Virus record (IMG/VR): IMGVR_UViG_3300033143_006358
Coordinates: 1-50,599 of that record
Length of the DNA: 50,599 nucleotides
Strand: one strand, 5' to 3'
DNA from: a virus
Lineage: Duplodnaviria > Caudoviricetes
The notes beneath the pieces are model-generated. The model did not search any database and was not told the DNA's origin. It saw only the letters and a list, made by a program, of their open reading frames with translations. Made by a program: the position numbers and the translations under genes. Below are positions 9,911-47,420 of the stretch, one piece after another; position 1 is the stretch's first letter, and each line of letters begins with the position of its first letter.

Positions 9911-10951
9911 ATGAATGAAAAACCACAATCAGAGCGTTGGCCGGTAACCGTCACCACTGCCGGGGCAGCTTTCGTGACGCCATTACCGGCGCCGAGTAAC
10001 AGCCTAAGTCATTACGTAACCGGCATAAACTCTTCTGGCGCAGCAGTTTGCGTATTTCCGCGCCGCCAATGCGTACTATTTAATGAGGCCGCCGCCGCCG
10101 ATTTCATTACCGTGGCCGACGCCGCAGGCGTGCAGATAGCAAACTCCAAGGATTTCATCATCCTGTTCTGGTTCAAGGCTGCCAAAGCCCAGGTGTCCAC
10201 CGGGGATTTTGTCTCTAAAATCAACGGCACAAACGGTTATACGGTAGAAATCGACGCATCCGGCAAGCTCAAAGTATCCATCGGCGACGCCGATACCGAG
10301 GCGACAATAACCTCCACGAACGTCGTAAACGACGGGAAATGGCACCATGTAGCCATTTACGGCGAATATGGATCTGCCACCGGCCTCAAGTTGTTTATCG
10401 ACGGTGATTCTGCTGCGACCGCCGTTACGCTGGTCGGGGTCACCGGAATAGGCACCGGGGCAGCGGGCTTGATATTGGGAGGCGGCGCCACAAGCGCTAC
10501 CAAGACGATACACATGAGCCAGTTCGGGATTTACGTAGCTACTGATTTATCAACGACTTATGCGACTATTATCGCCGCTCATTATAACAAAGGCGAATCA
10601 GGCGAGGGCGGCGAAAGGGTCGTCGGTAAGAAGTTTATCGGTACAGAGACAAATTTACAGGTGGCCTACAACCTGGACGAAGGCGCCAGCACGGTAACGA
10701 CGGACCTGGTAGGGGCATTGGATGGTACTGCGGAGGCAACCGTGACCTGGGTAAATGACGGCGTGCCGTTCGAGAATTTCAAAAACAACGTCGCCGAACC
10801 GCTCCCCGCCGTGACTATAACAGCAGTGGCGGCGGGCAATACCAATATACAGTTCCCTCATCCCATCAAGATAGGTCGCAATGCGCCGTTACACGTGTCT
10901 ATATCGGCGGCGGCCACGGTCACATTTTTTGGTTATACAGACGGAGTATAA
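9911..10951 (+). CDS. LamG / concanavalin A-like lectin domain protein, probably virion-associated
   Basis: FIILFWFK, VNDGKWHHVAI, LKLFIDG and LQVAYNLDEG motifs. Confidence 0.85.
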   Translation: MNEKPQSERWPVTVTTAGAAFVTPLPAPSNSLSHYVTGINSSGAAVCVFPRRQCVLFNEAAAADFITVADAAGVQIANSKDFIILFWFKAAKAQVSTGDFVSKINGTNGYTVEIDASGKLKVSIGDADTEATITSTNVVNDGKWHHVAIYGEYGSATGLKLFIDGDSAATAVTLVGVTGIGTGAAGLILGGGATSATKTIHMSQFGIYVATDLSTTYATIIAAHYNKGESGEGGERVVGKKFIGTETNLQVAYNLDEGASTVTTDLVGALDGTAEATVTWVNDGVPFENFKNNVAEPLPAVTITAVAAGNTNIQFPHPIKIGRNAPLHVSISAAATVTFFGYTDGV

Positions 10952-10952
10952 G

Positions 10953-11384
10953 ATGAAAACCAAACCAACTGATTTTCGCAAAGCGGTACGTACCGGAGAA
11001 GAAAAGGTAAAGCTGGGGCCTCCCATGCCTATGCCGGGCTACATCATGGTACAACAGGTTAAGACCCCGAACGTTTCGGAAGGCGGCATCGAACTACCGC
11101 AAACCTCCCAGGAAGATTTGCCCTACGGTATGGTGGTAAAAGAAAACCCATATGATATCGCAGCAAGAATAGAACCCAGACCGGAAGATAGACCTTGTTT
11201 TGAGCCGGCAAGGTCGATGGACCGGGCACTACTTAAAAACGGCACAATATCCATCCAGTTAGGCGACTATGTCCTGTTTCCGCCCCATGCCGGACATTTA
11301 TTGCCGGACGAGAAAGAACGTGGAGTACAATGGGTATTTATCAAACGGACCGATATTATAGCTGTTTTTGAGGCCAAAACTTAG
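10953..11384 (+). CDS. groES: GroES/Cpn10-like co-chaperonin
   Basis: PMPGYIMVQ, SEGGIELP mobile loop, IQLGDYVLF and FIKRTDIIAV; ATG 10953 with GGAG SD. Confidence 0.85.
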   Translation: MKTKPTDFRKAVRTGEEKVKLGPPMPMPGYIMVQQVKTPNVSEGGIELPQTSQEDLPYGMVVKENPYDIAARIEPRPEDRPCFEPARSMDRALLKNGTISIQLGDYVLFPPHAGHLLPDEKERGVQWVFIKRTDIIAVFEAKT

Positions 11385-19721: not shown

Positions 19722-21905
19722 TCAGGATGCCTTTTCGCTCAAGGTTATCGTACCGGTAATTAACAATCCTGTCAACTCAATGTCGTATGGGCCTACCACA
19801 CACTCTATGTTTGGCTCAAGAGTAAAACCGTCCAATTTAACGGCCTTGCAGCACGTGGAAGGATTGGTGGTAATATCTATCTGCACTTCGCCTTCCATAT
19901 CGTTCGTACTATCGGCGGCGGAGCCATATACGGTATCGCCCGTTTTGTCCCGAAACATACCAAAGGTGAGATATTCAGGCATATCCGACGCGATTCTCAA
20001 GCGCGTCCAGCGGGTGCATTTAATAGCGACCGCTTTTATTACCTTGCGGTGAAACAGATGATGCACGTCCATTTCCGGCCTTACGGGACTGAATCGCAAC
20101 TGCATATAGAGCGCGTTACAGGCGATTATCGAACCGGCAGCCGGAATAATATCGCCCGCCGAATTACTGCCCTGCCAGGTTGGAGTCGGCGTATCGTTCA
20201 CATAAGTCGTTCCCCGGTCGGACCCGGAAACTACGCGCACCACCCTACCGCCGCTCGGTGCGAGCGTCGCCAGGTCGCTTACGCCGTCCGCTACGGAGAA
20301 CGTGGCGTAACTTGCGTTAGCAGTAGGACATATACCACCGTCCTTATCCTGATTGTAGTCGGGCGTTGCCACCACGCCGTCGCCCCGGACGAAATAGGCC
20401 CGGACGCCGCCGCCCTCGTTAAACTCAACGTCCGGCCCGCTGGTAACAACCTCAAAGGGAAAATCATAGAGCATGGTAATGCTCTGCGTGGAGTCCCAGA
20501 GACAGGCGCATTGACCCAAATCGGCGTTCAAAATAAATACGCAGCCCATCTTAGAGTCATATCCCATAGAGATATTGTCGGTATAGGCGGACCATTCCTT
20601 ATGAAAAATACGGTTAAAGCCCTGTACCAACTGGCGCGCTCCGCCGCCTGCGCCCAATATCATCAATCCCTGCTGAGTGAGCATAACCACTTCCCGGTCG
20701 ATAGCGCATATCGCTTCTTTGCTCAATAGCCCCCTACCGTCCTGCATCCGACTGATCGCCACCTCGCCGCCGGCCTTGCGTATCAGATAACCGGCGGTAT
20801 TCGTAAAGGCATACAGATCGTCGCCGGCCCGGATAAATCGCTGCACCGGCCCGTCGCCCGGCAGTCCGGGATAAGAATATTCGCTGCCAAACTCCTCCGT
20901 ATTGGTTTTGTACGGATTGGTCCATACCAAACCCACGCCGCCGTTGGTATCGGGGTCTTGCGCTGCAAATACGCTGCCTTCGTAATAGGCGCAGGCGCCG
21001 GAGTTCGGCGGCATAATTAACGGATCAGCCCAGGGGTCGTACCGTTTCTGCTGGACCAACGCGGCATCAGACAGCAGGCCCATTGTGGCCTGACCGGCCT
21101 TGGCAATGGTTTGTTCCAGGAAAAGATCGCCCGTATGGTACGGATCGAGCGGGTCGCGCAGGTTCATACTGCGATAGACTTCCATCATATCCCAGTCTGC
21201 ATCACTCGGCGCATCGGGAATGTTAATAACCACTTTACAACCGTCGCTGCTGTCGGAAATCGACATGGTATGGGTAAGGCTCTCGCTTAGCCCGGTATAA
21301 ATCTGTCGTTTGGTATGATAATATTTATAGGCGAACATATATCGTCCGCGATGACTCAGGAAATGATCCGCCGTGTCGCCCGTTTCCGCGCCTGCCGTGG
21401 CCTCCGCCATATCGCCTGTTTTCATTTCGCCAAACGTATCATCGACCGGCCCCATCGGTTCTTCTTCGATACCTGAATCTTCGTAGAGCACTACAGGACC
21501 GGCGCTTTTTCTAAAAACATACAGGTATTCATGGCGCGAGCATACGTCCAGGCTCTTTGAGTCGGCGGGACCAGTTGCCGTCAAGGTTTGGGTCGTACCG
21601 CTGCCGTCTTCTTCTTCCAGTTCCAGGCGCAGGGCGTTGGAATTATATTGATAAAGGAATCCCCGATGCTCCACGCCGTCAACCGTCATGGCCACGTGCC
21701 GGCAAAAAGTTATTTTACCGGACGAAGGCCCGGTAAGGGTCATTACGTGCACGTTGCCCGGATACCGACGCGCGGACCCTCGGTAGCGACCGTCCACGCC
21801 CACCATACGGCTCATGGTATTGTCGGGCAGATTGTCGGGATGGACGGAAGCGTCCATCATGGCCCCGGCAATTCTATATTCAACCTGATAGTCTGCGTTT
21901 GCCAT
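19722..21905 (-). CDS. Tail nozzle / packaged-DNA stabilisation protein (beta-propeller-like)
   Basis: About 727 aa, beta-rich, placed before the ejection genes; true start probably ATG 21905 (TAATG coupling) rather than 22181. Confidence 0.6.
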   Translation of the reverse strand: MANADYQVEYRIAGAMMDASVHPDNLPDNTMSRMVGVDGRYRGSARRYPGNVHVMTLTGPSSGKITFCRHVAMTVDGVEHRGFLYQYNSNALRLELEEEDGSGTTQTLTATGPADSKSLDVCSRHEYLYVFRKSAGPVVLYEDSGIEEEPMGPVDDTFGEMKTGDMAEATAGAETGDTADHFLSHRGRYMFAYKYYHTKRQIYTGLSESLTHTMSISDSSDGCKVVINIPDAPSDADWDMMEVYRSMNLRDPLDPYHTGDLFLEQTIAKAGQATMGLLSDAALVQQKRYDPWADPLIMPPNSGACAYYEGSVFAAQDPDTNGGVGLVWTNPYKTNTEEFGSEYSYPGLPGDGPVQRFIRAGDDLYAFTNTAGYLIRKAGGEVAISRMQDGRGLLSKEAICAIDREVVMLTQQGLMILGAGGGARQLVQGFNRIFHKEWSAYTDNISMGYDSKMGCVFILNADLGQCACLWDSTQSITMLYDFPFEVVTSGPDVEFNEGGGVRAYFVRGDGVVATPDYNQDKDGGICPTANASYATFSVADGVSDLATLAPSGGRVVRVVSGSDRGTTYVNDTPTPTWQGSNSAGDIIPAAGSIIACNALYMQLRFSPVRPEMDVHHLFHRKVIKAVAIKCTRWTRLRIASDMPEYLTFGMFRDKTGDTVYGSAADSTNDMEGEVQIDITTNPSTCCKAVKLDGFTLEPNIECVVGPYDIELTGLLITGTITLSEKAS

Positions 21906-23137
21906 TATGAAGAGATAGTCCTTTTTAATATTTCCATGAATTCCACCGGACTTATCAAGTTTAGCGCTTTTTTCCGGTTTTGTTCCAAGTACGTATAGGT
22001 TAAATCCTGCCCGTTCAAGTTCAGGACTTGCTGTTTGCCCTGTCGGATTACGCCGACGCCGTAATCCGTATCTACCACGAACATTTCCAAATTCGGCTGT
22101 GTGGCGCGCCAGCGGATGAAAGCTCGCCAAACTGTCCCGCAGACGTTCAAAGACTCCGCCCCTGCCGATGGCGGATTGCAATCGTGCATGACAATTGTGC
22201 CGCCTTCATTGATACTTTGCTGTGCATTTTCCATGTCACGAAGCACTTGTCTCTCTTCGTGACAGCCGTCGATAAATATGAGATCGTATTTTTTATCGGG
22301 ATACGAAACAAAAAATTCATCCGATGTCATTTGGTATGTGGACACCGGCTTCGGGTCAATTCCTTCTTTTTGTTTACAACGTATTCGATCAAAACACCCT
22401 TTAGGGTCGCGAACGCCGATTTCAAGATAGGATTGATACCTATATTGATTGATTAGGCGGCGTATAATGTCAAACCGAAAACGAACATTATGATAGGTCA
22501 AGCCCAACTTACGTTTCCAATATGTAAAGTCGCCCCAATACGGGATATGCGTTTCATGCGTTTTGCACTCTCGGTATCCGGTAAAATTATTTCCATGCCG
22601 AATATCCAGGACCGGAAACTCTTTATCTATTTTTTCCGTTCGCCACGGGTCGGTCGTGGTCGCTCCTGGTTCTGGACGGGAAAAGAATTTGCCATTTTCC
22701 GTCTCTTCTTTACGAGATTGAAACGCTTCCTTTAGGATTTGCCGATGTCCACAGCAGCAACTTAACGGACCTGTCGCCATCTTGTCGCCGTATCCTTCAT
22801 AATTCAATAAGCGGCGAGGCCCTTGGTAATAAATGACATCCTTTTTCTGGGGTTCAAAATCGAAATATTCTTCTGGGTACAACACATCATGTTCTGCAAT
22901 AAACAGCACCTCGGAAGAACAAAAATCCAATCCACAATCAATCTGTTTGAATATAGTCTTTTGATGTCTGCCGAATTTCGTGCCGATACAGATATTCCGA
23001 CCAAATGGTATTGGCTTTTGGGATATGGATATAATAGGGATTTCTCTGGCCGCCTTGCGAAGTTGTTCCTGACAGCATTTTTGTATGGACGGTTTTAATG
23101 CGTTATCCGTTATGTAAATAATCTCTTTATGACTCAT
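21905..23137 (-). CDS. Glycosyltransferase (GT-A, EHD variant) fused to a class I SAM methyltransferase (Methyltransf_24-like)
   Basis: N-half IIYITDN...LFIAEHDVLY; C-half YLEIGVRD, YDLIFIDGCHE and GGTIVMHD. Confidence 0.85.
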   Translation of the reverse strand: MSHKEIIYITDNALKPSIQKCCQEQLRKAAREIPIISISQKPIPFGRNICIGTKFGRHQKTIFKQIDCGLDFCSSEVLFIAEHDVLYPEEYFDFEPQKKDVIYYQGPRRLLNYEGYGDKMATGPLSCCCGHRQILKEAFQSRKEETENGKFFSRPEPGATTTDPWRTEKIDKEFPVLDIRHGNNFTGYRECKTHETHIPYWGDFTYWKRKLGLTYHNVRFRFDIIRRLINQYRYQSYLEIGVRDPKGCFDRIRCKQKEGIDPKPVSTYQMTSDEFFVSYPDKKYDLIFIDGCHEERQVLRDMENAQQSINEGGTIVMHDCNPPSAGAESLNVCGTVWRAFIRWRATQPNLEMFVVDTDYGVGVIRQGKQQVLNLNGQDLTYTYLEQNRKKALNLISPVEFMEILKRTISS

Positions 23138-24350
23138 TATTTTCAAACCTGTCGTATTCTTCCAGTCGCACTTCATCGCGCCAGTCCACAATGGCTTTAG
23201 TCGCCTCCACAGGATCTTCGCCCACGTTCAAAACGCCGGGGCCGCCGTGGTACAGGATTCGTCTCTCCGTAACCGTATGGTCAGTTTTATTTACCTTAGA
23301 GCATCCCACAGCCGCCTGCGCCCCCAGCGTCTTATCCCAGCCGGGCACGGGCCAGAATTTACCTACCAGCCACTCTACTCCATGAATTTGACGCGGACCC
23401 ATTCCTCCGTAAAACATTTCCTGAATTTTTCGTCTGGTTTCGTCAACCTCTTCCGGCTTGGTGTCATGCGACGCTTTCGAGTTAAAAAGATGTAAACATT
23501 TTACATCGTTATGCAAAAGACAGCGTCCGCCGGAAAGCCATACTTTCAGCGACATTTCTGAACCTTCCGCCCCCCACTTGCTCCATGACTCATTTCTGCC
23601 TTGTAGCTGCCAATATCTGCTTTTACGCATCATCCATCCGCAGCCGGTAATGGACATAGATTCGATAACCGTTTCTTGTTCGTTTTTCTTTCCCCACCAC
23701 TTATCCACCAATTCGGGCGTCAATCGCACTCTGCCGTAATTGTGGTTCTTGTTTATCCATTGTTCCCCTTCTATTTTTACCGCGTCCAGTTTGCCAATAA
23801 CCAAATCCATAGGTCCGCAAATCGCTTTCAGTTTTTCGTCCCACCCCTCGCTCATTTCACAGTGGGCGTCCACGATAAAGATAAATTCGCCTCTTGCCTC
23901 TTTTGCCGCTTCATTCATTAAGACTCTTCTGCCCTGATTATTTGCATCTAGTTTCTTGATAATTTCCACGGAACCATTTGCGGCTTTTCTTATTTGTTCT
24001 TCAGTTCGGTTCAGATATATTTCGGACGGTAGCGAAATAATAATCACGCTCACCTTACCGGGATCGCAGGCCGTCCACTGGTTCTCCGGGCAGGACTCAC
24101 TGGCCCATTCCGTCTTTTTCTGCATGTGACAGCCGCATTTCCGGCAGCGCGTGGATTCCCTTACCTTGCCGTTTTTCTCCACGGTCCGTTTAATCAGCAT
24201 ATCGCATTTGAGACAGCCTTCCTCCCAGCGCAGGATTCTTTCTTCCGGGGAGACGTTTACTTTTTCCCGCCGGGCTCTCTGTTTAGCGCGTCGATGCACG
24301 GCTCCGGCCAGGTTCAATGCCTGACGTGGTTTGCTCGGTAATTCGCTCAA
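23127..24350 (-). CDS. GT-A glycosyltransferase resembling polypeptide GalNAc-transferases, with an N-terminal Cys-rich domain
   Basis: VSVIIIS, ARGEFIFIVDAHCE, WGAEGSEMSLKVWLSGG...HLF; N-terminal CxxC...CxxCGC...SCP; TTG start after AGGAG. Confidence 0.88.
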   Translation of the reverse strand: MSELPSKPRQALNLAGAVHRRAKQRARREKVNVSPEERILRWEEGCLKCDMLIKRTVEKNGKVRESTRCRKCGCHMQKKTEWASESCPENQWTACDPGKVSVIIISLPSEIYLNRTEEQIRKAANGSVEIIKKLDANNQGRRVLMNEAAKEARGEFIFIVDAHCEMSEGWDEKLKAICGPMDLVIGKLDAVKIEGEQWINKNHNYGRVRLTPELVDKWWGKKNEQETVIESMSITGCGWMMRKSRYWQLQGRNESWSKWGAEGSEMSLKVWLSGGRCLLHNDVKCLHLFNSKASHDTKPEEVDETRRKIQEMFYGGMGPRQIHGVEWLVGKFWPVPGWDKTLGAQAAVGCSKVNKTDHTVTERRILYHGGPGVLNVGEDPVEATKAIVDWRDEVRLEEYDRFENNES

Positions 24351-24361
24351 GATTCATTCTC

Positions 24362-25369
24362 CTATATATAAGTTACGTCCCATTCTATCGTACCCCCGTT
24401 GCCGTCTCCGGTGCAAATGCCCCCGGTACAGTAGTTGTCCGCCACGTTGCAGGAATCGCTCCAAATCGCACCGCCCCATACTTCCTGAATAGACACACCG
24501 GCGTAGGTATTATCGTTCGTACCAAGGCCTGACGGACCGCAAAATGTAATCTTAACATGATCGTAATTAGGGGGATTAGTAAATCCGGCGTCATCCGTCG
24601 TCCAGGAACATTTTGTGGGTCGAACGTTGCCGCACTCCCAGAAGCATCCGGGTTCTGAGGGGGCCTTACCGAGCGAGGTCGTGTAATAGTAACCGCCCAG
24701 TCGGTAGGTGACGGTGACGGTATCGACGGAGCCACAACAGTCCGTACAAGCCTCCGGCGTCGTAGTCGAGGTAGTCGAAGTGGTTGTCGATGAAGTTGTA
24801 GTCGAGGTGGAACTACTTGTAGTGGTAGTGGTGGTGGAGGTTGTTGAGGACGTCGTGCCCGTAGTCGTTGTCGTAGTTGTCGTGGAGGTCGGAGTCGTCG
24901 TGCTGCTCGTCGTTCCCGTAGTCGTCGTAGAAGTCGTCGTAGAAGTCGTAGAGGTCGTACTGGTGCTTGTGGTCGTTGAAGTCGTGGTGGTCGTACTACT
25001 ACTAGTACTGCTGCTGGATGTCGTACTGCTCGTCGTGCCCGTAGTCGTCGTAGAGGTCGTAGAGGTCGTAGTGGTCGTAGTGGTCGTAGTCGAAGTCGTG
25101 GCACAGCAATCGTCCGGTATATAAGCGTACAAATTGTTTTTATTAGTATCGTAGCATACCATGTAATAATCGTCGCAGTCCGGTACGTACACTTCCAGCC
25201 AGGTCGGGTCGGATGTACCGAGCACTTCGGATGGATTATTGTACCCGGCGCAGAGTTCGCCGATGGCATAGAGACAGCCCGGCCCCACATCGACTTCGGA
25301 GCAGTTCTCGATAAGACCGTCGCCGTCGCCGTCGGGATCGTAGCCAAAGTATTCCAATACGTAAGCCAT
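24362..25369 (-). CDS. Mucin-like Thr/Ser-rich protein with Cys-rich N- and C-terminal domains
   Basis: About 115 nearly pure T/S residues between CC motifs; DPDGDGDG Ca-binding-like motif at the N-terminus. Confidence 0.85.
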   Translation of the reverse strand: MAYVLEYFGYDPDGDGDGLIENCSEVDVGPGCLYAIGELCAGYNNPSEVLGTSDPTWLEVYVPDCDDYYMVCYDTNKNNLYAYIPDDCCATTSTTTTTTTTTSTTSTTTTGTTSSTTSSSSTSSSTTTTTSTTTSTSTTSTTSTTTSTTTTGTTSSTTTPTSTTTTTTTTGTTSSTTSTTTTTTSSSTSTTTSSTTTSTTSTTTPEACTDCCGSVDTVTVTYRLGGYYYTTSLGKAPSEPGCFWECGNVRPTKCSWTTDDAGFTNPPNYDHVKITFCGPSGLGTNDNTYAGVSIQEVWGGAIWSDSCNVADNYCTGGICTGDGNGGTIEWDVTYI

Positions 25370-26809: not shown

Positions 26810-28441
26810 CTAGGTTCCTACGACCGCCGTACCATACAGGTAGGTCTGTGATTTATTGGCTCCGCTGACCACCAGTGTTTCATCGTTGTCCCAGGTATGA
26901 CCGGCCCCGGCGCAGAAGACATAGTAGGTGGCGTCGTCCAGCCAGAATACGACCTGCCCCAGATTGTCCGTAGTCAGGAATCCGGCGTAGGCCGGCGAAC
27001 CGGACGAACTGAGACTTAACCAGCAGCGTGCGCCTTCGATGGCTACGCCGCCGGTCGTTTGGATAGTAAGCGTGCATTGATAGGCCCCGGCAACCGGCTG
27101 GCCGAGCGCTTCCAACGTATCGGTTATGCGGACGAAATCGCTGGTGTCACCGCCCGCCGTCATTAGGTTCGACAGTACCGAGCCGTCCACTACTTCCACC
27201 GTCATGTCGTCGCCGTCGGCGACCGCTGTCTTCATCAGGTGATCGAGATTGTTGGACACCATCACGTCCTGGGGCGTAGAGTTGAGAGTGCCCGAACTAG
27301 AGGAATAATTGCAGTTCATCACGTATAATGTTGCTGAATCATTCACATCAATATCGGTTTCTCCTCCACCGACACTATTACTATGTAATGTACAGTTAAT
27401 TAAGGCCGCTTTCGTATCCGCATCATTAAGCTGTACGCATATAGCGTTGCCTGTATGATTGGAAGTGCCGCTGCAAAATACCTGCACATTTTCTACGACG
27501 AAGTTCGCTGCACCCAACGCATCGCCGATCATTAGGCCGACCATATCTTCAGATGAAACATCGTTACGATAGTTGTATATAGTGCAGTTGCGAATGATGC
27601 CGTATCCATCGCTGCCTACTATTATCCCCCTACACTCATTACCCACTGCTGATGGGGAATCCATGTATATGGCACAATCTTCGATGATGATATTCTGTGC
27701 CCCTGATGCGTTAATACCATCAAATTCATGGGTAATCGTACAACGACTGATTCTACAATCTCGTGACCCGCGTGGATACATCCCGTCCGCGACGCCCAAG
27801 ACGATGCAATCTTCAACTACAACATTGCTGTGTCCCAAATAGCTGATCCCATGACCAAAGCCAGAACCGTCAGCCGTTAAATTCCTAATCGTGCAGCCGT
27901 CGCAGGGATTGATTGCATTGCCAGCCGCTGACTGAATAATTACGCCGCCCCTATCCGTTCCCTGAATCGTTACCGCCACTGCGGGCGATACCGTTTCTGC
28001 GTAGGTGCCCGGATAAATGATGATCGTGTCACCTGCGCTGGCGTTCGTTACGGCCTGTCCGATAGTGAGTACGGCGCTTTCAAAGCTATGACCTCCGTTG
28101 GAGTCATTGCCCGTCTTGGCTACGTGATGAACGTGGCTACTCTCCCCTCGGCGGGTAAAGACAGTGCCCGGTACGCCGAGGACCTGGATGTCGCCGGTGC
28201 TGCTGGCTGGGCATATCGTAATCATGTTCCCGTCGGTTTCCGCCGCCGTCAGGTCGAAATAGTAATAGCCGTCCTCCAATTCGGTCGGGTTCGTGTCATC
28301 GACCGCGTTCGCCGCTGCGCCGTCGATGCGGAGGTTGGCGGTGATATTGGCGGCGTCGCCCGCCTTGGGAACGTTGTCCGTCCGGTCGAAGGCGAATACG
28401 ACCCACTTTTGTCCCGTAGTTTTTTTTATCAGGTCTGCCAT
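26810..28441 (-). CDS. Tail spike/fibre-like protein with a right-handed beta-helix (pectin lyase-like)
   Basis: HVAKTGNDSNGG...TIGQAV...GDTIIIYPGTYAE, repeated IEDC/IRNC turns, C-terminal Ig-like TTDNLGQVVFWLD domain. Confidence 0.8.
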   Translation of the reverse strand: MADLIKKTTGQKWVVFAFDRTDNVPKAGDAANITANLRIDGAAANAVDDTNPTELEDGYYYFDLTAAETDGNMITICPASSTGDIQVLGVPGTVFTRRGESSHVHHVAKTGNDSNGGHSFESAVLTIGQAVTNASAGDTIIIYPGTYAETVSPAVAVTIQGTDRGGVIIQSAAGNAINPCDGCTIRNLTADGSGFGHGISYLGHSNVVVEDCIVLGVADGMYPRGSRDCRISRCTITHEFDGINASGAQNIIIEDCAIYMDSPSAVGNECRGIIVGSDGYGIIRNCTIYNYRNDVSSEDMVGLMIGDALGAANFVVENVQVFCSGTSNHTGNAICVQLNDADTKAALINCTLHSNSVGGGETDIDVNDSATLYVMNCNYSSSSGTLNSTPQDVMVSNNLDHLMKTAVADGDDMTVEVVDGSVLSNLMTAGGDTSDFVRITDTLEALGQPVAGAYQCTLTIQTTGGVAIEGARCWLSLSSSGSPAYAGFLTTDNLGQVVFWLDDATYYVFCAGAGHTWDNDETLVVSGANKSQTYLYGTAVVGT

Positions 28442-28929
28442 TATGCGGCCCTCTTGAGAAACATTTCATAATATAAGGTCGGCTTTATCGCCGAGGTCGT
28501 CGTAGAACTCGTAGTGCCGGTCGTTGTGCTGCTCGTCGTTCCCGTAGTCGTTGTAGAGGTCGTTGTCGTACTAGAGGTGGTTGTGGATGTGGTCGAAGAG
28601 GTCGTACTTGTTGTGCTGCTGGTGGTTGTCGTCGAAGTGGTCGTGGTACTACTCGTGGTCGTAGAAGTGGTGCTGGAAGTCGTTGTTGTGGAGGTTGTGG
28701 TGCTAGTAGAGGTTGTCGTAGTCGTCGTGGATGACGTGGTACTGGTTGTCGAAGAGGTTGTGGAGGTAGTTGTGCTCGTGGTTGTCGTCGTTGTCGTGGT
28801 TGTCGTGGTGGTGGATGTGGTTGTCGTAGTGGTAGTAGTGGTCGTGGTGACGGCGGGCGGCGCGGCCTGGATGGCGCCGATGTCCATGCCATCGGTTTGA
28901 ATCGAACCTATATCCATATACGTAGCCAT
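28441..28929 (-). CDS. Short mucin-like Thr/Ser-rich protein
   Basis: MDIGSIQ/MDIGAIQ head, about 120 T/S residues, short aromatic/basic tail; TAATG-coupled to the next gene. Confidence 0.85.
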   Translation of the reverse strand: MATYMDIGSIQTDGMDIGAIQAAPPAVTTTTTTTTTTTSTTTTTTTTTTTTSTTTSTTSSTTSTTSSTTTTTTSTSTTTSTTTTSSTTSTTTSSTTTTSTTTTSSTTSTTSSTTSTTTSSTTTTSTTTTGTTSSTTTGTTSSTTTSAIKPTLYYEMFLKRAA

Positions 28930-46688: not shown

Positions 46689-47420
46689 TTATTTAGACTC
46701 ATTATCACGCTCCCTTCCGGTTCCTACGTTTTCGTTTTCCCCGCCCCCGACGGTAAACAAACATTGTTCCTCTTTTGGTTTTTCTTCTTTCGATGACTCA
46801 AACAGATACGGCTGACTTAATTCCTTTTCGATCCGCTGCTTGGCAATCTCGTAGTATTTCTGCTCGATCTCGATCCCGATGAATTTTCTGCCCGTGCGGA
46901 TACAGGCCACGCCGGTTGTGCCGCTGCCCATGAAGGGGTCAAGAATAGTTTCGCCCTCTTTGGTCATTCGCTCTACTAATAAACACATATATTCAATGGG
47001 CTTCGGTGTTGGGTGATCTGGCATTATTCCCCGCACCGAAAAACACATTACATTTTGCTGTAGCATTTTTGGTTTAGATATTGCCACAACAGCAGCAATC
47101 CAATTTGAAAAACCTATCGGGCTTCTGGTTCTACTATTAGTATTCCATGCTGCGACAACATCAACAAAATCATTACCTGCGAGTGGTATAGAGTCAGCCA
47201 GCCCAGCCGAGCCAGTTATAATCACAATCATTTTTACAATCCGCTTGGCATCACTATACCATTGTGTCGCAAATCCATTGTCCCAGTCGGCTTTGCCGCA
47301 CCCATACGGCGGGTCGGTTATCACGGCATCCACGCTTTTGTCCTCCATCGTTTTCATTACGTCCAGGCAATCGCCCTGGATCAGAGTCATGTCGCCAATC
47401 TGTTCAGTTTCATGCGTCAT
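46689..47420 (-). CDS. Orphan DNA methyltransferase (N6-A/N4-C, beta class)
   Basis: GDCLDVM, VITDPPY, HPTPKP and ILDPFMGSGTT motifs. Confidence 0.93.
   Translation of the reverse strand: MTHETEQIGDMTLIQGDCLDVMKTMEDKSVDAVITDPPYGCGKADWDNGFATQWYSDAKRIVKMIVIITGSAGLADSIPLAGNDFVDVVAAWNTNSRTRSPIGFSNWIAAVVAISKPKMLQQNVMCFSVRGIMPDHPTPKPIEYMCLLVERMTKEGETILDPFMGSGTTGVACIRTGRKFIGIEIEQKYYEIAKQRIEKELSQPYLFESSKEEKPKEEQCLFTVGGGENENVGTGRERDNESK

Follow-up and report, generated by a model that had tools for sequence, protein, structure and literature searches.

The polypeptide GalNAc-transferases (ppGalNAc-Ts) of glycosyltransferase (GT) family GT27 are regarded as a eukaryotic invention, and the polypeptide GlcNAc-transferases of family GT60 are lectin-less relatives of them that act on Ser, Thr or hydroxyproline. 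Here we describe a GT27-like enzyme encoded by a virus of the Caudoviricetes, whose gene lies on the minus strand of the IMG/VR record IMGVR_UViG_3300033143_006358, a complete virus record of 50,599 bp with direct terminal repeats; this whole stretch of DNA is called the window below. The GT27 enzymes of apicomplexans are described, in the accessible text of PMC3417536, as acquired from animals. Among phages, GTs have been proposed or shown to decorate structural proteins in the virions of Che8, Corndog and Myrna (Freeman et al. 2023, as related in the accessible parts of PMC12363180 and PMC12582341), and protein A064R of the chlorovirus PBCV-1 combines two GT domains and a methyltransferase domain that serve the virus's own glycoprotein (excerpts of PMC9614988). 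Gram-positive bacteria have serine-rich repeat protein (SRRP) systems in which very long Ser/Thr-rich proteins are O-glycosylated in the cytoplasm by the products of neighboring genes, followed by variable elongating transferases.

The window enzyme had no match at E≤1e-5 when searched by tblastn against 50,697 GenBank phage records, and at this level the mycobacteriophage enzymes belong to a different family. Their acceptors are capsid or tail-tube subunits, whereas those proposed here are dedicated proteins with Ser/Thr (S/T) tracts of more than 100 residues. A064R serves a eukaryotic virus, where it adds the terminal part of an N-glycan of the capsid protein, while the window splits two GT domains and a methyltransferase over two genes; the combination of activities is alike, with no specific homology shown. 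SRRP glycosylation is initiated by the GtfA/GtfB pair, of a different fold, and the products are exported through an accessory Sec system; the window has neither. The best match over the whole GT-A domain is to the ppGalNAc-Ts (human GalNAc-T1, T2, T4, T7, T10 and T12, Drosophila PGANT9 and Toxoplasma GalNAc-T3). With them the window enzyme shares a DxH motif plus a distal His, an aligned Gal/GalNAc-T motif and the association with poly-Thr/Ser (mucin-like) proteins; unlike them, it is phage-encoded and predicted to be cytoplasmic, with a Cys6 module at the N terminus and a helix motif (WLVGKFWPVPGW) at the C terminus. Because of its fold, its catalytic residues, the fusions in which it occurs and the conserved order of the genes around it, we think that it is probably the initiating protein O-glycosyltransferase for mucin-like proteins of the phage. 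The features of the enzyme gene are these.

23127..24350, minus strand: GT27-like glycosyltransferase of 407 amino acids (aa), TTG start, recognized by Pfam, by sequence and profile matches to the Protein Data Bank (PDB) and by an AlphaFold2 (AF2) model; the layout is an N-terminal basic helix and Cys6 module, a GT-A catalytic domain and family-specific C-terminal helices (WLVGKFWPVPGW)
23862..23870, minus strand: DxH motif D161-A-H163, predicted Mn2+/UDP-sugar site, invariant in 54 sequences and aligned to the GalNAc-T DxH
23523..23576, minus strand: Gal/GalNAc-T-like motif WGAEGSEMSLKVWLSGGR, residues 259-276, aligned to WGGENxExSFRxWxCGG
23490..23492, minus strand: distal His287, predicted third metal ligand, invariant in the 54 sequences and aligned to the GalNAc-T GHVF histidine
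24066..24215, minus strand: Cys6 module, residues 46-95 (C46-x2-C49 ... C69-x2-C72-G-C74 ... C87), putative zinc ribbon, from an alignment of 14 bearers

The motif strings quoted in the first-pass annotation, which was made from the letters alone, are all present in the open reading frame (ORF) 23127-24350: DAHCE, at exactly the same coordinates, corresponds to residues 161-165 (23856-23870), CLHLF to residues 285-289, and the Cys strings CLKC and CRKCGC to residues 46-49 and 69-74. We confirm that the observation of DxH and GT27-type motifs is real and beyond chance. The family alignment consisted of 54 of the 107 homologues found in a large-database search, with 23 to 39% identity to the window enzyme. 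Along it, D161, H163, C164, H287 and G275 are invariant, and E265, K269, W271, L272, S273 and G274 are conserved in at least 90% of the sequences.

Pfam placed the enzyme in Glycos_transf_2 (PF00535, 41.2 bits versus a cut-off of 23.3), a broad family in which membership leaves the acceptor undecided, and NCBIfam gave only a far sub-threshold match to TIGR04283 (17.8 bits versus a cut-off of 182). When the enzyme was compared with PDB chains by phmmer, 16 distinct sequences scored E≤1 and every one was a polypeptide GalNAc-transferase (best, 3.8e-8), the 16th (8uhv) being by its title the Toxoplasma GalNAc-T3 (TgGalNAc-T3). The HMMER alignments pair DAHCE with LDAHCE, WG..E..S.K.W..GG with WGGENxExSFRxWxCGG, and H287 with the histidine of GHVF. 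With a profile of the 54 sequences, 15 ppGalNAc-T sequences in the PDB were matched at E values from 1.9e-20 to 3.8e-12 over profile positions ca. 6-260, i.e., the whole catalytic domain, and TgGalNAc-T3 was matched at 5.2e-9. The GT2 structures outside GT27 matched profile positions ca. 3-86 only, at E≥5e-10; among them are a putative Bacteroides GT, GalT1, chondroitin and heparosan synthases, TarP and SpsA. The AF2 model had a mean predicted local distance difference test score (pLDDT) of 79, mostly above 90 over residues ca. 100-340 and 47 to 76 in the N-terminal part; the protein ends ca. 65 residues past the catalytic domain, in helices of low confidence. In Foldseek searches with this model, ranks 1 to 50 were all GalNAc-Ts (E from 6e-14 to 1.6e-11). 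In an all-against-representatives structural search by VIA-align, the best superposition was on GalNAc-T1 (Z 24.7, root mean square deviation 2.6 Å over 242 residues), TgGalNAc-T3 having a Z of 23.1 and the next folds following after a gap (WrtF, 17.0; K4CP, 16.6; GlfT2, 16.5). The earlier preference for a GT27-type peptide transferase over a generic GT2 enzyme is thus supported in silico by the profile, Foldseek and VIA-align results, as it is by the recurrence of a neighboring poly-Thr/Ser gene, and GalNAc-Ts rather than polysaccharide or lipid GT2 enzymes lead both the sequence and the structure comparisons.

A generic GT2 enzyme using a lipid-linked or polysaccharide acceptor, for example to change the host surface and block superinfection, would be in keeping with Glycos_transf_2 as the sole Pfam family above its cut-off and with the GtrB-type GT2 genes that phages carry, a GtrB entry appearing at rank 33 in the BFVD search. 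However, the polysaccharide and teichoic-acid GT2 structures match the nucleotide-binding half only, with Z values of 17 or less against 24.7 for GT27, and the gene stands in a late operon, not in a lysogeny module. The enzyme has no membrane segment (the maximum 19-residue Kyte-Doolittle mean is 0.96), and we found no flippase, polymerase or Gtr partners in the genome. We consider this explanation quite unlikely. The lack of a hydrophobic segment indicates that the window enzyme is soluble.

Relatives are numerous. Against 1.84 billion cluster representatives (50% clustering), the family counts 794 at E≤1e-3, 321 at E≤1e-10 and 61 at E≤1e-30, and the N-terminal module is covered by ca. 26 of the best 150 of the 794. 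One viral UniProt entry in BFVD has 33% identity to the window enzyme (2.9e-34). Some likeness to GT60 is seen in the BFVD fold matches, which include uncultured-phage proteins named "Glycosyltransferase, GlcNAc" (E from 7.6e-10 to 8.6e-9), and in the Atlas neighbors of the family, which are viral GT2 clusters and one cluster that is 100% PF11397, the GT60 (GlcNAc) family. The window enzyme differs in having no Pfam match to PF11397 at E≤0.01, and the relative P0003 matches it over 22 residues only (E 0.018). Seven relatives (P0126, P0131, P0148, P0164, P0168, P0172 and P0189) are proteins of 940 to 1,350 aa with three to five separately matched stretches and are apparent multi-glycosyltransferase fusions.

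The proposed acceptors are two proteins encoded upstream in the same operon.

24362..25369, minus strand: mucin-like protein of 335 aa, proposed acceptor, the ORF directly upstream of the enzyme gene
28441..28929, minus strand: second mucin-like protein, 162 aa, probable second acceptor, with an S/T tract, ca. 4 kb upstream of the enzyme gene

The 335-aa protein is made up of a Cys-containing N-terminal domain, an S/T tract, a C-x-D-C-C motif and a Cys-rich C-terminal domain. Its tract (residues 91-204, positions 24758-25099) has 114 residues, of which 78 are Thr, 32 Ser, 3 Gly and 1 Pro, and its reading frame is confirmed by residues 20-89, which are 64% identical to the homologue at locus L002. 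The tract of the 162-aa protein (residues 28-146, positions 28492-28848) has 119 residues (86 Thr, 31 Ser and 2 Gly); this protein contains no Cys, and its gene is directly upstream of that for a 543-aa NosD/beta-helix protein (26810-28441). The tracts draw on all four codons for Thr and all six for Ser, which points to selection on the protein and not to a DNA repeat.

The pairing of the enzyme with a poly-Thr gene recurs in other genomes. With the 10 closest sequences as the query, 9 related loci were found in viral contigs, or 10 with the window included. Six carry the Cys6 module (the window, L002, L003, L004, L005 and L009), and in all six a poly-Thr gene stands directly upstream on the same strand, with one 139-aa ORF between them in L003. 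The module-less enzymes (L006, L007, L008 and L010) start at the catalytic domain, and none of the four has a poly-Thr ORF in the fetched flanks, which for L006 amount to just 5.3 kb upstream. A metagenome scan with the alignment of the 14 module bearers found 108 relatives; 80 were kept, and 8 loci cut at the N terminus were set aside. Here, eight of nine module bearers have an ORF with a 20/20 S/T stretch directly upstream on the same strand, at a distance of -24 to +278 bp; for the ninth, L223, only 581 bp are available upstream, with a truncated Cys-rich ORF and a small one resembling that of L003. Among the N-complete loci without the module, there was no adjacent poly-Thr ORF in any of 63 (for 41 of these, 1 kb or more of upstream sequence is available; L235 and L008 are one contig). 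Pooled, a poly-Thr gene was upstream in 14 of 15 module-bearing loci versus 0 of 67 module-less ones. What follows downstream varies, while the pair of substrate and initiating enzyme is fixed: L002 has a GT2, a GT2 plus methyltransferase and a methyltransferase, L003 and L221 have GT2-type and MptE-like genes, and L228 has two GT29-family fragments and a methyltransferase.

The enzyme might instead glycosylate other virion proteins, such as the capsid, tail tube or tail spikes, as in the mycobacteriophages, with the poly-Thr proteins being flexible linkers and chance neighbors. Phage GTs are reported to modify the capsid and tail-tube proteins of Che8, Corndog and Myrna (accessible part of PMC12363180), and the short-form enzymes of L007 and L008 are located in structural modules and have no poly-Thr gene in the fetched flanks. 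Against this, the substrate-like gene is adjacent in 14 of the 15 module-bearing loci despite flanking domains that are not homologous, the same arrangement is found beside giant Ser-rich bacterial proteins, and poly-Thr/Ser is the classical type of acceptor for GT27, so that we hold this alternative to be unlikely. It is very improbable that the enzyme is inactive or structural and the synteny an inherited gene order only. The module-bearing loci do all belong to one sub-family, but 54 diverged sequences (23 to 39% identity to the window enzyme) have kept the catalytic D, H and H and the sugar-binding motif without change, and the downstream partners change while the pair is kept.

Some further genes were seen in these cassettes. 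At L228:7111-8261, in a 50,262-bp metagenome contig, two adjacent ORFs of ca. 190 aa match Glyco_transf_29 (1.8e-14 and 1.1e-13) just downstream of the Cys6-GT27-like gene and a poly-S/T gene; GT29, the sialyltransferase family, is mostly eukaryotic, and its presence in a phage-like contig is unusual. MptE-like proteins (PF01973) are encoded at L221:3278-3952 (5.1e-8) and L003:12624-13271 (5.7e-4); the MptE-like domain also occurs in Maf-type flagellin glycosyltransferases.

Coming back to the initiating transferase, the module at its N terminus is a candidate for recognition of the substrate. In the 14 aligned bearers, R41, C46, C49, C69, C72, G73, C74, M76 and C87 are invariant. PHROG 13558, of unknown function, matches residues 64-92 of the window enzyme (E 7e-6). 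For DUF6171 (PF19668), which requires 27 bits, no match was found in the window N terminus at E≤1, and relatives gave sub-threshold scores (P0004, 24.0 bits; L003, 17.9; L002, 14.5). The model is of low confidence in this region (pLDDT 47 to 76). The first-pass annotation had noticed a Cys-rich domain where no ricin lectin domain was visible, as we also find, and had suggested that it may target the substrate; the distribution of the module (14/15 loci with an upstream poly-Thr gene versus 0/67 without the module) supports this in silico, and the Cys6 module may well be the substrate-targeting part. The poly-Thr proteins themselves have, outside the tract, detectable homology only for the pair of the window and L002 (E 6e-26; other pairs, E≥0.18). 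The adjacent ones have a Cys motif in common right after the tract (CxxC, CC or C-x-[DE]-C-C), as in PEACTDCC (window), GDCTDCC (L002), PEPCEDCC (L222), PEGCSDCC (L224), PAGCSDCC (L225), IQGCEGCC (L228) and GTCDTCC (L229), with CxC or CxxC in L220, L004, L005 and L009. This post-tract Cys motif is absent from the non-adjacent tract proteins, i.e., those of 162 aa in the window, 441 aa in L002 and 203 aa in L228.

The gene downstream of the enzyme codes for two more predicted activities.

21905..23137, minus strand: fusion of a second GT-A domain and a class I S-adenosylmethionine (SAM) methyltransferase, 410 aa, with an uncertain start (TTG 23191, ATG 23176 or ATG 23137)
22493-23137, minus strand: second GT-A domain, residues ca. 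1-215, the counterpart, by alignment, of the C-terminal domain in fused GT27-like proteins

In the second GT-A domain, D84, Y87 and H181 are invariant and E82, within AEHDVLY, is conserved in at least 90%; its AF2 pLDDT is 86 to 98 over residues 1-210. Foldseek gave SpsA first (8e-7), also WrtF, TarP and GlcAT, and, at rank 43, domain 1 of PBCV-1 A064R (E 1.2e-4). This domain and the GT27-like domain form one polypeptide in P0002, in the phage loci L004 and L009 and in bacterial proteins of 550 to 600 aa. The C-terminal half has a Methyltransf_24 domain (44.8 bits; Pfam-matched part, 22178-22345), modeled with a pLDDT below 50 from an alignment without homologues for that part. Together, the 335-aa gene, the enzyme gene and the downstream gene therefore look like a substrate, an initiating transferase and an elongating transferase with a methyl cap.

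Phage DNA glycosyltransferases exist, and PHROG labels the methyltransferase part "DNA methyltransferase" (phrog_27561, 7.4e-10), so one could imagine that the enzyme glycosylates modified DNA bases or another small molecule and that its neighbor methylates DNA. This seems highly improbable. The fold is specifically GT27-like, Pfam revealed no base-hydroxymethylase or comparable gene in the window, and a separate N6_N4 DNA methylase is encoded elsewhere (46689-47420). Methyltransf_24, judging from bacterial homologues, is moreover the type that fills sugar-modification islands, alongside TylF-type O-methyltransferases.

Relatives of the proposed O-glycosyltransferase are also found in bacteria. 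In a scan of one genome per species, 115 genomes had a relative, and 80 were kept. Many are labeled Woesebacteria, Levybacteria, WWE3, Saccharibacteria, Paceibacterota or "Patescibacteria group," and others otherwise (labels as given); five that we inspected are of 0.6 to 1.2 Mb. Counting ORFs of at least 150 aa on the same strand with at least 16 S/T in 30 residues, an S/T-rich ORF was downstream of the fused enzyme in 27 of the 50 loci with at least 3 kb downstream, 11 of the 27 starting within 650 bp of it, and upstream in none of the 64 loci with at least 3 kb on that side. The Ser-rich proteins reach more than 1,900 aa, have [SPSxS]n repeats and are mostly 35 to 51% Ser; two of nine contain LamG domains, like the phage protein at L002 5612-6934. 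Upstream of the bacterial enzymes there are GT2 genes, several Methyltransf_24 and TylF-type methyltransferases, a UDP-glucose dehydrogenase and an epimerase/dehydratase. In three of four small genomes inspected, the giant Ser-rich protein is followed by TatC (L216:15701-16528, L217:2499-3254 and L219:7533-8279) and then by housekeeping genes, a position that may reflect a dedicated export route for the glycoprotein. The fused bacterial enzymes lack the Cys6 module and have an insertion in the catalytic domain, FDWVC..GHRRYQG..G.C..C, with C120, C134 and C144 (P0023 numbering) invariant.

We also considered that all the bacterial loci might be prophages, and rejected it: the four genomes inspected further downstream run into housekeeping genes, with TatC in three of them. 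At L181:11254-12984, in a contig of a Patescibacteria-labeled metagenome-assembled genome, a 1,187-aa protein with LamG and Ser-rich parts adjoins the fused enzyme. After its gene come HK97-gp10-like and tail-terminator genes (PF12691, 7e-25), and these phage tail genes place the L181 copy in a phage or prophage. By tblastn with the L181 phage genes, no other locus was matched, most loci ending inside the giant gene. We conclude that most bacterial loci are chromosomal and at least one is phage-derived. In L139, L143, L148, L161, L184, L187, L191 and others, the match of the 596-aa bacterial enzyme spans 2.2 to 2.5 kb instead of ca. 1.8 kb, which points to inserted sequence in these genes, perhaps an intein, an intron or an additional domain.

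From these data, the following mechanism can be proposed. Late in infection, a soluble, cytoplasmic and metal-dependent GT-A enzyme would start a phage-encoded cassette of protein O-glycosylation by moving the first sugar from a UDP-sugar, a HexNAc (N-acetylhexosamine) by analogy only, to Thr/Ser hydroxyls. The acceptors would be the 114- and 119-residue Thr/Ser tracts of the two proteins in the same late, tail-region operon. The Cys6 module would replace the eukaryotic lectin domain for targeting and may recognize the C-x-[D/E]-C-C motif after the adjacent tract. The downstream GT-A domain and SAM methyltransferase would then extend the glycan and cap it with methyl, giving a virion appendage with a mucin-like, densely glycosylated stalk.

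Several observations weigh against this computational reading. Identity to the GT27 structures is just 14 to 21%; Glyco_transf_7C scores 19.7 bits (E 6.7e-4), under the Pfam cut-off of 23; no Ricin_B_lectin match was found by Pfam at E≤0.01 in the enzyme; and the type II membrane anchor of canonical GT27 is absent. Since the lectin domain and the anchor are missing and Glyco_transf_7C stays below its cut-off, the enzyme resembles GT27 without being a canonical member, and "GT27-like" is a defensible label. The poly-S/T proteins and their neighbors have no PHROG or Pfam match, and their membership of the virion would follow from gene position alone. As the module bearers form one sub-family, the 14 of 15 loci cannot be counted as independent; L220/L221 and L225/L226 are likely near-duplicates (identical ORF lengths and peptides), and the S/T thresholds were set after the first loci had been inspected. 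An S/T-rich neighbor is missing in 4 of 10 viral, 63 metagenome and 23 of 50 bacterial loci. We also ran the reverse test, scanning viral contigs for (ACN)12; there were at least 125 stretches, and 80 loci were examined with 2-kb flanks. A run of 10 or more Thr occurs in an ORF in 70 of the 80, and the hidden Markov model of the family matched within 2 kb in just 3, so poly-Thr proteins are common in viruses without the enzyme nearby. One of these matches, L040, is to the second domain only. In another, L025 (1.5e-37), a poly-Thr gene and a GT2 are followed by a module-less family member, so that the correlation with the module is not absolute.

Two loci of the reverse test deserve description on their own. 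The L025 ORF (1664-2239) codes for 192 aa with an uninterrupted run of ca. 100 Thr. At L079:2-3905, the third match, a viral contig of 113 kb (L076-L079) encodes a protein of at least 964 aa in which several poly-Thr linkers connect repeated modules; its gene is directly downstream of that for a 313-aa DxH glycosyltransferase (SDAHC, YGGGENF), a distant relative of the family. This transferase was rejected as a GT27-like enzyme; as a single sequence it matched only TarP in the PDB, in the N-terminal half (1.5e-4).

In the literature searched, mostly outside subscription journals, we found nothing published on phages or Patescibacteria that pair GT27-like enzymes with poly-Thr proteins. The data describe a widespread family of phages and ultra-small bacteria with the catalytic architecture of GT27 and genetic ties to Thr/Ser tracts of more than 100 residues. 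If the proposed function is true, mucin-style protein glycosylation extends to phages and ultra-small bacteria, the soluble cytoplasmic enzyme offers a simple model for starting dense O-glycosylation of mucin-like tracts and a route to mucin-like glycoproteins made in bacteria, and uncultured phages are predicted to bear bottle-brush glycoprotein appendages, with a bearing on adsorption, stability and immune recognition of the particles. The origin of mucin-type glycosylation could also be put to the test. A much wider proposal, which we regard as possible and rather doubtful, is that of a self-contained mucin-type O-glycosylation of phages and Patescibacteria-like bacteria, in which a GT27-like enzyme with a Cys6 zinc module would dock on the post-tract C-x-D-C-C of a dedicated substrate, the elongating enzymes would be swappable (GT29-like of the sialyltransferase family, or Maf/MptE-like, in relatives), and the eukaryotic ppGalNAc-transferases would have this prokaryotic and viral clade as their sister group or their source.

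As for the rest of the genome, the window codes for a large terminase (phrog_38, 2.8e-49), at most ca. 27% identical to anything in the GenBank phage records, a portal protein (phrog_156, 1.1e-6), RusA, an AAA_24 ATPase, a PD-(D/E)XK nuclease, the N6_N4 DNA methylase mentioned above, and LamG and beta-helix proteins. In the long, co-directional late operon, the enzyme gene has large proteins of unknown family on one side and beta-helix proteins on the other. The G+C content is 0.46 over 22001-24000 and 0.546 and 0.530 in the flanking 2-kb bins, a hint at the joint acquisition of the two enzyme genes, perhaps a recent one. On the plus strand, opposite to the late operon, a LamG protein (Laminin_G_3, 9.4e-14) and a Cpn10-like ORF are found at 9911-11384; LamG also heads S/T-rich proteins in L002 and two bacterial loci.

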